Virus record (IMG/VR): IMGVR_UViG_2721755728_000008
Origin: a virus
Lineage: Duplodnaviria; Heunggongvirae; Uroviricota; Caudoviricetes
Reading direction: 5' to 3' (one strand)
DNA length: 40,851 nucleotides
Position numbers: made by a program. Shown here one piece after another: positions 6,001 to 9,000 of the stretch. Position 1 is the first letter of the stretch, and every line of letters begins with the position of its first letter.

Positions 6001-9000
6001 AAAGGTCATCCGCGGCTCTGTGCCCCCGAAACCATCCGGGACCGTCTGGTCGCAGTACTGCGCAATGGCATACAGCGCCCACTTGTCAACATCCGCCGCC
6101 ACCAGACGTTTTCCCATGCCGTAGCGCGGGTGAGTCAGCATGTCCCACAGGCACCAGGCCGGGTTGTTGCTGTATGCCGGTTTCAGGCTGCCGTCCCAGA
6201 TGCCGCTGTACGTGCGTTTTTCCGGGTCATAGTTTGACGGCACCTGGATGATGCGACCTCGGATATGGTAGTTCACCGTCATCTGCTGACCGCCAAACTG
6301 CTCCGCATCCACCTGCAGCCCCACAATCGCCGTGTTCGGGTAGCACTGTTTCACATCGATGATTTCGGTGTATGACGACCAGAGCGTCTTATTCTGCAGC
6401 TGGTCCGTGGTGCTGTCCGCCGTCTCCCTGACCATCCGGATGTTAAAGGGGCGGGGAGGCAGATTATCCAGAATCACCGAAGCGAGGAACTGTGAGGTGG
6501 TCTTGCCGTTAATGGTGACATCCTTTTCCGTCACCCAGTTACCGTTACGCTGCAGCTGAATCAGCAGGCGGACGGATGCCGGGTTACGGTCACCCTGTGA
6601 GGTGGTCTGCACCAGTGACTGCACCCCGAAGGTGACCCGCAGGCGGTCAATGTTCGCGGACGTAATGGTGCGCGTCACCGGCTTTGCCTTCGTCACTTCC
6701 ACGCCCAGTGCGGTTTCAGAGCCGGATGACTCAAAACCTTCCGGCGGTGTCTGCTCCTGCTCCCCGGCGCGCCAGACCGCTGTCACACCATGTATCACAG
6801 GATTACCGTCCGTGTCCGTCAGCGGGGTTTTGTTCACCAGAATACTCTGCAGCCCCTTCACCGGACCTTCAATCGGCCCTTCACCAATGGCGTCAATCAC
6901 GCTCATCATCTGCGTGGATTTGAGATTATCCTTCGCCTCTCGAGGCGTGTGCGCCCTGCCGCCACCTTTGCCCATAATGTTCCTCTCAATTGGTATTATT
7001 AATCGCAGTGATAGGATATTGCACAGCTATTGCGCGATATCATCAGAACGCTGTTTGTTACCCTGTAACCAGCAAGCTCAGTCTGTTAACGGAATTAATG
7101 AGGGTTTTATGAAATGTAAAATCATTGCTGCCATTGCCATGCTGACAGCAGCATCATGCGGATACGCAGCAGAACAGGAAGTCCCAATGAACCTTGTCAG
7201 TGCTGACGGAAAAGAAGTCAGCATTGGAAAAATAACCATTCAGGAGACCCCCTACGGTCTGCTGTTCACACCAGCCCTTCACTCTCTGTCTGAAGGCATT
7301 CATGGTTTTCATGTGCACGAAAAAGGAAATTGCGCCCCGGCACTGAAAGACGGAAAACCGGTCGCAGCATTATCGGCTGGCGGTCACTTTGACCCGAAAA
7401 ACACCGGCAAACATCTTGGCCCCTGGTCTCCGGATGGACACCTGGGCGACCTCCCTGCGCTGTTCGTGACGCATGACGGAAAAGCGAACTACCCGGTCCT
7501 GGCCCCGAGACTGAACTCATTAAAAGAGATTAAAGGGCGTTCTCTCATGCTTCATGCTGGCGGTGATAACCATCATGACCATCCGGAGCCCCTGGGCGGT
7601 GGTGGTGCGAGAATGGCCTGCGGCATCATTCAATAATCAGTCAGGTAAGGGGCGGGCCCCTTACCTTTATTCCTCAGGACGATAAATCCTTTCTCCCTGA
7701 AAAGAACGGCACATCCTCCCTCTCTGAGTTAATGTTTTTGTCGTGACATAAGAATAATTCCTTACACTCAATCTTCATTTTCTGTTCCCGCAGCCTTCGG
7801 TCACTGCGGGATTTTTTCGCTTTTATGCCTGCCGCCCGATAACCACCACCTTCCCGTCACCGCCTTCATCACGGGTACTGATGTCCTGGGAGATTCGCCG
7901 TGAGCCAACCAGCATTTCACCGTAAGGCACCGGCATCGGGTTCCCCTGAGCAATCATGTTGTCCAGTGAGGAAAAATACGTGTTCTGTCTGCCGTTATCC
8001 GTTGCGCGGTAATCCGGTGTTTTTGCCTTCGGGGCAAGCATCTGAGCCACACCACCCAGTATCATGCTGGCCCCCAGTGAAAACAGCATCGTGGTGGCAG
8101 AAAAACCACCGGCTGCCAGGGCTGAACCCCATAACGCCATTGATGCCCCGGCAGTGAAGAAAGAGCCCACGATGGCTGCCGCCCCCAGCACAATCTGCAG
8201 TCCACCCTTTCCGGCCCCGGCCAGTCGCGGCACAATGTGGATGATCGTTCCCTCACCCAGTTGTTCGTGAAGACGGGCGTACACCGCCTCCGGTGCCGTG
8301 TCCTCACCGCGTACCATCTGGCGGGAATTGATATGCCGGATTTTGAGCGTGAGGATGACTGGTGGCGCAACGGTCAGAACCTTTACCTGGACAATATGGC
8401 GGTCACCGGCTTTTACCGGGTGCCCCTGTCCTCTGCACAGGCGGGCGATATCCTGCTGTGCTGCTTTGGCGCATCGGTGGCCAATCATGCCGCCATTTAC
8501 TGCGGCAACGGTGAACTGCTTCACCATCTGCCTGAACAACTGAGTAAACGGGAGAGGTATTCCGAAAAATGGCAACGACGAACGCATTCTGTCTGGCGTC
8601 ACCGCCACTGGCACGCATCTGCCTTCACGGGGATTTGCAACGATTTGGCCGCCGCCTCAGCCTGTATGTGAACACGGCAGCGGAAGCCATCCGTGCCCTG
8701 TCGATGCAGATGCCGGGATTCCGCCGTCAGATGAACGAAGGCTGGTACCAGATACGTATTGGCATCCCGGAACAGCGTGTAACAGTCCGTCACCCCGTGC
8801 TCAAAGCGCCGTCCTGTCAGATGTGGCACACAGCGGAATTTATGAATTTCCCCCCGGCAGACCAGCCACCAGGACAGTGCACTTTTTATCTGCAGCCGCC
8901 GGTCGGCCTCGCTCAGCCAGGGCAGACCACCGGGATGACTGTGGACCAGTGCCACAATCTCCCCCTGCATCTCTGCCCGCAGCCAGTCTTCCGGTGCAAT

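Follow-up and report, generated by a model that had tools for sequence, protein, structure and literature searches.

A sodC-F moron beside a putative pasB-like sRNA element at the I–J junction of a lambdoid prophage

The stretch of DNA analysed here (the window; 40,851 nucleotides, IMG/VR record IMGVR_UViG_2721755728_000008, Caudoviricetes) carries, between tail genes I and J and on the plus strand, a cassette that is the known sodC-F moron of EHEC/EPEC lambdoid prophages. We consider it very probable that the cassette is such a moron supplying an exported and active superoxide dismutase, that it ends with the hairpin T1, and that a second hairpin, T2, comes from a resident pasB small RNA (sRNA) gene. 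That EHEC prophages carry sodC has been clear since the O157:H7 genomes were sequenced, and NCBI annotation of sodC is already present in more than 500 complete genomes. Because this cargo has already been characterised and is not new, the finding is real but ordinary, and as a discovery it has limited weight: the biochemistry of the EHEC prophage sodC was done in 2008.

The sodC gene (7109..7636, +; ATG at 7109, TAA at 7634-7636) has a precursor product of 175 aa. Pfam and NCBIfam profiles, together with a residue check, identified the ORF as an intact periplasmic Cu,Zn superoxide dismutase gene. The Pfam family Sod_Cu (PF00080) matched with E=3.9e-32 (111.9 bits against a cut-off of 28.9), the NCBIfam SodC equivalog NF007628 scored 218.4 bits (cut-off 165), and the closest solved structures were bacterial periplasmic Cu,ZnSODs (E about 1e-62). 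The ligand motifs aligned without gaps to solved SodC structures, comprising the copper ligands H68 and H70 (HGFHVH), H93 (GGHFDP) and H149 (MLHAGGDN), and the zinc ligands H93 (bridging), H102 (GKHLGP), and H111 and D114 (GHLGDLP). The disulfide pair C75-C171 and the catalytic R168 are kept as well. The roles given to these residues are those that we take to hold from established knowledge of SOD1 and SodC. The gene is thus intact, and it encodes a Cu,Zn superoxide dismutase whose active site is complete. A first-pass annotation had proposed a complete periplasmic Cu/Zn sodC gene between I and J on the plus strand, a proposal that loss of the metal-ligand motifs would have undone; the ORF does lie within the gap, and all of the motifs are kept.

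By sequence inspection, residues 1-20 (7109..7168, +) form an export signal with a basic N-terminus and a hydrophobic core. This signal includes the lipobox AASC (residues 14-17, nt 7148-7159) and is followed by a predicted signal peptidase I (SPI) site between A20 and A21 (A-x-A-like, GYA/A). It is identical to the signal studied by experiment in PMC2569942, where both the lipobox and the SPI site are described for SodC-F1 and SodC-F2. Residue 112 is Leu, the mark of the F1 allele, and SodC-F1, the Leu112 allele matched by this ORF, has a superoxide dismutase activity of 19,380 U/mg (PMC2569942).

The cassette is bounded by two genes of the tail operon. On its left is J, the tail tip and host-specificity gene (3499..6975, −; 1158 aa), an ORF with the full gpJ set of Pfam domains (FNIII-A_GpJ, Ig_J, Phage-tail_3, Phage_Tail_Tip and Ig_GpJ_C), and on its right is the C-terminal, about two-thirds part of gene I (7823..8308, −), an ORF with its stop at 7823. 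Since J starts at 6975 and I stops at 7823, both on the minus strand, the I–J gap is 6976..7822, or 847 bp, in agreement with the first-pass annotation. In lambda the two genes are adjacent, with 60 bp between the end of I (15444) and the start of J (15505). The limits of the cassette were set from junctions that lack sodC and from the 80% identical allele of strain cM8a, giving 6976..~7720, 745 bp, in an orientation opposite to that of the tail operon. On the J side, homology to the sodC-less junction ends exactly at the J start codon, and the J Shine-Dalgarno sequence (minus-strand GAGAGGA, about 6979-6990) sits inside the sodC cassette. The right end falls within 7667..7720 (+), the place taken in alignments by the pasB promoter of relatives. 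The suggested comparison of the I–J junction across related prophages found some with the cassette and others without it, the latter with I–J spacers of 240-423 bp (Stx2c phage LC727877, CFT073, SMBL, 602354, Ecol_542 and E2348/69).

The GC content at the edges of the insert is 0.44-0.48 (6900-7300 and 7600-7900), compared to 0.58-0.64 in J and I; in the middle of the sodC coding sequence it is 0.57-0.58. Morons, as described by Juhala and Hendrix, are recognised by extra DNA at a junction, a terminator of their own, a promoter of their own that works in the repressed prophage, and a differing base composition, and the cassette displays extra DNA relative to its relatives, the terminator T1 and the deviating composition. 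The unrelated sodC of Fels-1 uses the same junction, which suggests that I/J is a preferred site for cargo.

The J-sodC-I layout is not confined to the window. Of 5426 complete E. coli genomes, 543 have it in their annotation, and it recurs in the Stx2a phages LC567829 and LC567840, in which the SodC protein is 100% identical. At the nucleotide level, 541 of 548 complete E. coli records carry the 745-bp cassette with an identity of 99% or more, O157:H7 EDL933 (99.9%) among them; with its upstream region included, it matches the copies of many O157:H7, O55:H7, O145 and O111 strains with 100% identity. The flanks are only 93-99% identical, well below the cassette. Conservation of at least 99% in a prophage that looks defective (see below) is in keeping with selection for the cargo rather than for the phage.

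Upstream of sodC lie 133 bp (6976..7108, +) that hold a Shine-Dalgarno sequence (GAGGG, 7100-7104) and a 32-nt invariant block. A promoter scan of this region for sigma-70 sites gave none scoring at least 9/12. When the scan was made more lenient, the top score was 8/12, as for TTGGTA-16-TAGGAT at 6990/7012, and none of the 8/12 candidates is kept in the 80% allele of cM8a. The block at 7027-7058, in contrast, is exactly shared between the two sodC alleles, the upstream regions of which are 78% identical, making it a candidate promoter/operator or other regulatory element of sodC. Inspection by eye yielded an unconvincing 7/10 FNR-like match within the block and, by analogy with sodCI, an equally unconvincing PhoP box upstream of sodC, represented by a lone TGTTTG half-site. 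In Salmonella, sodCI is PhoPQ-regulated. The upstream regions of the Fels-1 and Gifsy-2 genes did not align with the window and therefore provided no regulatory footprint from Salmonella. A 299-bp sodC-F upstream fragment drives a lacZ fusion independently of RpoS, its activity given as "data not shown" (PMC2569942), and it is on this published fusion, rather than on the sequence of the window, that the first-pass claim of an own upstream region rests. A consensus-like sigma-70 promoter is absent from the sequence.

Two hairpins follow sodC on the plus strand. T1 (7643..7672, +), found by hairpin scan and folding, is the intrinsic terminator of sodC. Its stem (7643-7666), 7 nt past the sodC stop codon, has 10 bp, including 6 G-C pairs (GGTAAGGGG/CCCCTTACC), and folds with −19 kcal/mol (z −2.4). 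In the cM8a allele every stem base is conserved and the loop differs. The U-tract of T1 is weak (UUUAUUCC, the stem being followed by TTATTCC), and termination at T1 may therefore be incomplete. The stem of T2 (7786-7811, +) is followed by T6 and CGCTTTTAT, with the U-run at 7813-7818. Altogether, there are 6 terminator-like sites in 6500-8300, compared to 1.8 +/- 1.3 in shuffled sequences. No compensatory changes were seen in either stem, both of which are invariant in the collected sequences; the short-loop variant of T2 was found at ≥99% identity in only 6 records. We infer that sodC transcription ends at T1 and that T2 is at most a back-up stop shielding gene I from plus-strand transcription.

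The first-pass annotation had assigned both hairpins to the moron. In that case T1 and T2 would be its own tandem terminators, the cassette would reach 7822, and T2, acquired along with sodC, would protect the tail genes. Both hairpins are indeed on the plus strand, T2 has the better U-tract, and a second stop would be useful behind the weak tail of T1. However, 7721-7822 aligns with the six sodC-less junctions listed above, and 1803 E. coli genomes contain the spacer with T2, at 4525 places in all, compared to 723 places for sodC. Genomes exist that have the T2 spacer without sodC, and both kinds are found at I/J. Furthermore, in the sodC-less relatives a near-consensus promoter lies about 100 nt ahead of T2, which there corresponds to PasB, an sRNA validated by Northern blot. 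A moron with two terminators of its own is accordingly very improbable: only T1 belongs to the cassette, and T2 most likely terminates a pasB-family sRNA gene that resides at the I–J junction.

This assignment rests on alignment to PasB, on locus and on fold. The window segment 7739..7818 (+), which includes T2, resembles the 83-nt PasB of EPEC E2348/69 in 66 of 86 aligned columns (77%), and its 3′ terminator arm is identical to that of the E2348/69 RNA (PasB coordinates and probe from Table S6 of PMC8550237). In E2348/69 the PasB locus is located between I and J. The window body starts 5 nt past the I stop codon, and, as in E2348/69, it lies beyond that stop, antisense to the tail operon, and carries a CCCGCAG...CTGCGGG hairpin with a U-run. 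Hfq-dependent accumulation and RNA–RNA interactions have been shown for the E2348/69 PasB (Pearl Mizrahi et al. 2021, PMC8550237). The pasB promoter, TTCACA-N16-TATAAT, is present in E2348/69, CFT073, 602354, Ecol_542, SMBL and cM8a. It is absent from the window, where the −35 element is deleted, the −10 position reads ATCCTC, and the segment is replaced by ...GAAAAGAACGGCACATCCTCCC... The common sodC-F cassette thus appears to have removed the promoter of the resident pasB gene, and the promoterless element in the window would not be expected to be expressed unless by read-through from sodC. The genome annotation omits the PasB sRNA gene at the I–J junction, and the cited literature does not mention that the usual sodC-F allele decapitates pasB. 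A further source on PasB is a 2026 preprint by Zhu, Shabalina and Storz.

A search of 6800-8000 against Rfam (E up to 10) gave nothing above threshold, and Rfam has no PasB family. STnc400 matched the 3′ end of sodC and T1 with 23 bits, where the gathering score is 80, and was rejected because neither the Gifsy-2 nor the Fels-1 sodC locus contains it. The anti-sRNAs AgvB and AsxR were rejected as identities for the T2 element because they lie downstream of pR′, outside the tail region.

The juxtaposition of sodC and a promoterless pasB admits a further reading, in which the two form a composite: mRNA reading through T1 would end at T2 and release a PasB-like, Hfq-binding 3′UTR sRNA. The poor U-tract of T1 is in line with this, as are the retention of the pasB-like body and terminator despite the lost promoter and the fixation of the sodC–pasB junction in at least 541 records. 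Against it, the body shares just 77% identity with the validated PasB and may be a neutral leftover that persists owing to its position next to the I stop codon, and literature searches turned up no sRNA beside sodC-F. We regard such a composite as unlikely. Also improbable is the corresponding history, in which the sodC-F cassette landed beside pasB and deleted its promoter, after which a leaky T1 would let the sodC mRNA carry or release a PasB-like 3′UTR RNA. If true, hundreds of EHEC/EPEC strains would have the expression of an oxidative-stress cargo gene tied to a prophage sRNA regulon, and the I–J junction would be a two-part slot, with a constant sRNA gene next to I and a variable cargo bay next to J.

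The prophage itself appears to have undergone rearrangement. A 455-bp segment outside the moron (8309..8763) is inverted across the K/I junction; it takes in the 3′ half of K together with ~64 codons from the start of I. Gene I is thereby interrupted 486 bp before its stop, its C-terminal part separated from its own 5′ part, and the Pfam NlpC/P60 and Lambda_tail_I matches are found on the plus strand, within the inverted segment; in comparison locus L002, I is intact. The breakpoints display only a short, imperfect ATAC..ATCTGG match, with no IS element or long repeat. The alignment of the window to its closest relative covered up to 14.1 kb. Frameshifts near 19.3-20.4 kb divide the portal gene over different reading frames, and the prophage looks defective, as far as can be judged from these lesions. 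Consequently, lysogenic conversion by this copy would be a matter of history rather than of present transmissibility.

Such decay might extend to the cargo, leaving sodC a silent relic that contributes nothing to the cell, as the inversion, the split portal gene and the lack of a recognisable consensus promoter would allow. Yet the ORF, Shine-Dalgarno sequence, signal peptide and catalytic residues are all intact, the cassette is 99.9-100% identical to the copies in O157:H7 and elsewhere, above its 93-99% flanks, and chromosomally tagged sodC-F genes are expressed in O157:H7 (strain ED597, with a sequence equal to that of EDL933; PMC2569942). A relic is the least probable of the readings considered, and we retain that of a sodC-F moron with an exported, active enzyme.

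In the mechanism that we propose for the moron, a self-contained cassette directly upstream of J would be transcribed in opposition to the late (tail) operon. SodC-F would convert superoxide reaching the periplasm from outside, for example from a host oxidative burst, to O2 and H2O2. Envelope targets would be protected, and the lysogen would gain fitness regardless of particle production by the prophage. Published properties of the enzyme come from work on the near-identical O157:H7 genes: the repressed prophage expresses sodC-F during exponential growth, in stationary phase and under anaerobic conditions, independently of RpoS, and the protein is present in both soluble and membrane fractions, part of it cleaved by SPI to a soluble periplasmic dimer and part lipidated at Cys17 and anchored in the membrane (PMC2569942). 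Published phenotype data for sodC-F concern sensitivity to H2O2 and the abundance of the protein in Caco-2 cells (PMC2569942), and the cited literature reports no contribution to virulence in animals. The description of the gene as lysogenic-conversion virulence cargo therefore holds insofar as it is the EHEC sodC-F moron, while the virulence part goes further than these E. coli data.

The closest known systems are sodC-F1 and sodC-F2 of the O157:H7 prophages CP-933R and CP-933V (D'Orazio et al. 2008, PMC2569942), which are 99.9-100% identical to the window over the 745 bp. SodC-F1 has the same 175-aa precursor, 155-aa mature protein, AASC, SPI site at 20/21 and Leu112, and annotated genomes have it in the same I/J position. 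There is no difference in the cassette; the window differs in its flanks, with the I/K inversion and the short-loop T2. The Sakai prophage Sp10 has also been named as a sodC carrier (PMC8046923). The first-pass annotation had likened the gene to those of Gifsy-2 and EHEC. The kind of cargo is indeed the same, but the positional analogue is Salmonella Fels-1 sodCIII (STM0924), which likewise sits in the I–J gap and runs antisense to the tail operon, rather than Gifsy-2 sodCI. The Fels-1 protein is 60.5% identical to the window SodC, and its upstream region cannot be aligned, so the acquisition was probably independent or very old. Gifsy-2 sodCI (STM1044) is a prophage-borne, antisense gene for a periplasmic Cu,Zn-SOD and a documented virulence determinant, but it is found between lom/M and L, not at I/J; its protein is 58.8% identical, and its upstream region is unrelated. 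SodCI resembles SodC-F in being dimeric and stable (PMC2569942). The chromosomal E. coli SodC (PDB 1ESO) has the same fold and ligands (phmmer E=1.4e-56), and the mature proteins are about 61% identical. The chromosomal enzyme is monomeric, soluble only, RpoS-dependent and expressed only in stationary phase, and it is less active and less stable than SodC-F, which has about three times its activity (PMC2569942).

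The window is a lambdoid prophage whose genes include nleB2, tail fibre genes, lom, J, sodC, I, K, L, M and H, followed by head genes, terminase, Rz, lysozyme, a SASA esterase, three tRNAs, Q, DUF968, hok/sok and a YdaT-family gene. J (3499..6975, minus strand) encodes 1158 aa with the full gpJ Pfam domain set, and the stop codon of I lies at 7823-7825 (minus strand). The stretch 6976..7822, which the first-pass annotation had assigned to a sodC moron, is exactly the gap from the J start codon to the I stop codon and measures 847 bp, compared to 60 bp in lambda. It was correctly said to contain a complete periplasmic Cu/Zn superoxide dismutase gene on the plus strand: an intact ORF of 175 aa starts at an ATG (7109) and stops at a TAA (7634-7636), with GAGGG at 7100-7104 ahead of the start, and matches Pfam Sod_Cu (E = 3.9e-32) and the NCBIfam SodC equivalog (218 bits; cut-off 165). 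The closest structures are the periplasmic Cu,ZnSODs of Haemophilus ducreyi, Yersinia, Salmonella (SodCI) and E. coli (E = 1e-56 to 1e-62). Loss of the ligand motifs would have refuted this reading, but the catalytic residue set is complete, comprising the Cu ligands H68, H70, H93 and H149, the Zn ligands H93, H102, H111 and D114, R168 and the disulfide pair C75/C171. The protein begins with an export signal that contains the lipobox AASC.

sodC is present at some I-J junctions and absent from others that are otherwise homologous. The "empty" junction of the Stx2c phage LC727877 aligns with the window up to 6975, the J start codon, and again from 7721 onwards, with 131 unrelated bp in place of the insert. 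A rare sodC allele in strain cM8a (≈80% DNA and 81% protein identity, all ligands retained), occupies the same site, and its alignment with the window spans the J start codon through T1, the first of two plus-strand hairpins 3' of sodC. From these two comparisons, the limits of the cassette were set at 6976..≈7720. On the plus strand, the cassette provides the sodC upstream region, sodC and T1; on the minus strand, it provides the Shine-Dalgarno sequence of J. The GC content is 0.44–0.48 at the cassette edges versus ≈0.6 in the tail genes.

Of 5426 complete E. coli genomes, 543 have the order J-sodC-I in their annotation; the best match is in strain 2013C-4991 (98.8% identity over 1.4 kb). The same order is annotated in the Stx2a-converting phages Stx2_EH2201 and EH1846, in which the SodC protein is 100% identical. 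The insert-specific 745 bp (6976-7720) match 548 records, with at least 99% identity in 541 of them; identity is 100% in many O157:H7, O55:H7, O145 and O111 strains and 99.9% in O157:H7 EDL933. Given this near-identity in O157:H7 records, the gene is sodC-F of D'Orazio et al. 2008 (PMC2569942). The lambdoid prophages CP-933R and CP-933V carry two almost identical sodC-F copies, distinguished solely by nucleotide 335, through which F1 has Leu where F2 has Pro (PMC2569942). With T at nt 335 and Leu112, the window carries, as judged from this position, the F1 allele.

The published properties of sodC-F (PMC2569942) include expression from the native prophage locus during exponential growth, in stationary phase and in anaerobic culture. 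A lacZ fusion to a 299-bp upstream fragment showed no RpoS dependence, in contrast to chromosomal sodC; the relative abundance of SodC-F rises in bacteria within Caco-2 cells, and sodC deletion mutants have increased sensitivity to H2O2 (PMC2569942). Either signal peptidase I, cutting after residue 20, or signal peptidase II, acting at AASC, can process the signal peptide, and the protein is found in both soluble and membrane-associated form; it is a dimer, more stable than monomeric SodC and ≈3 times as active (19,380 versus 6,290 U/mg) (PMC2569942). The window holds an undamaged gene that encodes a complete active site and an export signal, is followed by a terminator and is essentially identical to that of this expressed, active enzyme. 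SodC would be secreted by the Sec pathway, in part lipid-anchored, and would dismutate exogenous superoxide in the periplasm, with the lysogen as the beneficiary.

The sodC promoter would lie either in 6976-7108 or, on the antisense strand of J, as far as 166 bp into that gene. A sigma-70 consensus scan upstream of sodC gave no match of at least 9/12, and the 8/12 candidates are not conserved. The upstream regions of the window and cM8a alleles are 78% identical overall and share an invariant 32-nt block at 7027-7058 (CTATTGCGCGATATCATCAGAACGCTGTTTGT), the best candidate for a promoter or operator. On the plus strand, T1 has a 10-bp stem (7643-7666) with the tail TTATTCC, and the second hairpin, T2, has a stem at 7786-7811 followed by T6. 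During lytic growth, Q-modified late transcription would have to run across the cassette in antisense. Neither hairpin has a U-run behind it on the minus strand, and T1 and T2 should therefore not block the tail operon.

The first-pass annotation took both hairpins as terminators of the moron. Both exist and T1 belongs to the cassette, but T2 would be that of a pasB-family sRNA gene and is common to junctions that lack sodC. The spacer 7721-7822 is found at 4525 places in 1803 genomes, CFT073 and ATCC 25922 among them, whereas the sodC cassette is found at 723 places in 546. Upstream of the shared part, six aligned sodC-less junctions have a near-consensus plus-strand promoter (TTCACA, 16 nt, TATAAT), with a CCCGCAG...CTGCGGG hairpin and U7 run ≈100 nt downstream, a layout with the anatomy of an sRNA gene. 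That gene is pasB: PasB of EPEC E2348/69 is an 83-nt, Hfq-dependent sRNA validated by Northern blot, at NC_011601 1466343..1466261 (Table S6, PMC8550237). These coordinates place PasB on the strand opposite to the tail genes, between the end of I (1466255) and the start of J (1466496), and the published probe matches the junction hairpin.

PasB and window positions 7739-7818 share 77% identity and an identical 3' terminator arm; no Rfam model matches this element. The −35 region of the pasB promoter is deleted and the −10 reads ATCCTC. Almost all sodC-F prophages likewise lack the promoter, since the junction falls inside the 745 bp conserved at ≥99%. In cM8a, sodC and T1 are followed by an intact pasB promoter, probably reflecting an older state. 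By sequence comparison, T2 is thus best described as a pasB relic, which may still serve as a back-up stop for sodC read-through; such read-through might yield a PasB-like RNA. The hairpin in the window (7786..7811) is a short-loop variant (loop CCTTCGGTCA); aligned Stx2c-phage and CFT073 spacers have a 16-nt loop. The 102-nt spacer is at least 99% identical in only six records, and most sodC-F prophages, including O157 RIMD 0509939, are only ≈87% identical to it. The element looks like a hybrid of a CFT073-type 5' part and an E2348/69-type 3' part.

Other features of the I-J spacers were also apparent. Junctions that lack sodC have a strong hairpin and U-run on the tail-gene strand just upstream of J (1818-1841 in L002, a locus with intact I; same position in the E2348/69 loci L015 and L013), so that an intrinsic terminator lies within the late operon and faces pasB. 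In the window, the cassette stands in place of this hairpin; Fels-1 (L005, about 4878-4900) has a similar one upstream of J. The J-proximal part of the spacer varies among prophages (L011 of CFT073 and L014 of Ecol_542, about 660-850), and in CFT073 its end has another plus-strand terminator-like hairpin, CCCCGGTATC...GATACCGGGG then TTTTCTTTC. This variation hints that the spacer pairs a constant pasB gene with a slot for variable cargo.

The prophage looks defective at two places, while the cassette is untouched. K and I are both split by the inversion of a 455-bp segment (8309..8763), which holds the 3' half of K together with ≈64 codons from the start of I and has the opposite orientation in all relatives examined; flipping it back restores a 247-aa K and a 233-aa I. 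A query across both breakpoints reached at least 80% coverage in none of the 5426 complete E. coli genomes. The inverted piece is 99.8% identical to O26:H11-type prophages, its flanks are ≈99% identical to strain 2013C-4991, and its ends share only a short imperfect inverted match. The inversion may have arisen by a rare rearrangement, by misassembly or as an artefact. The portal gene (19098..20690, minus strand) is split between reading frames, with ORFs at 20193-20690 (Phage_portal_2 profile positions 2-127), 19310-20380 (positions 122-339) and 19101-19511, all on the minus strand, whereas the closest relative has a single 1593-bp gene. Such a split points to a defective prophage or to errors in sequencing.

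Rfam matches above the gathering score, all on the minus strand, were STnc100 (29284..29456, 100.8 bits), the sok antitoxin RNA of the hok/sok module (33772..33946, 114 bits) and the three tRNA genes (30230..30476), downstream of Q in the direction of late transcription; these are typical of EHEC/EPEC lambdoid prophages. Further cargo at the tail end includes an NleB-family type III effector (1..981, minus strand; SseK_NleB E = 4.9e-181; nleB2 in the annotation of the closest genome) and a Lom/Ail outer-membrane protein (2807..3466, minus strand). The early-region cargo (34508..37095) consists of an ORF without Pfam matches (34508-35215, plus), a SAM-methyltransferase-like ORF (35222-35881, plus) and a SMEK-domain protein (36196-37095, minus), unlike that of the closest relative, strain 2013C-4991, which has SLATT and SMODS genes.

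The sodC finding is thus real and its main interpretation correct, but already known. Three minor points are new: T2 derives from pasB, the common allele has lost the pasB promoter, and the I/J site is shared with Fels-1. A literature search found no paper connecting sodC-F with pasB.

The likening to Gifsy-2 and EHEC sodC cargo holds, with near-identity of the 745-bp insert in the case of EHEC, but the positional match in Salmonella is Fels-1. Fels-1 sodCIII (60.5% identical) lies antisense between I and J, as in the window, whereas Gifsy-2 sodCI (58.8% identical) lies between a lom homologue/M and L. The upstream regions of the Fels-1 and Gifsy-2 genes gave no match when aligned with the window. 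Together, the genes, sites and upstream regions argue for more than one entry of Cu,Zn-SOD genes into lambdoid tail clusters, each antisense to the late operon, with the I/J site used for sodC in both E. coli and Salmonella.
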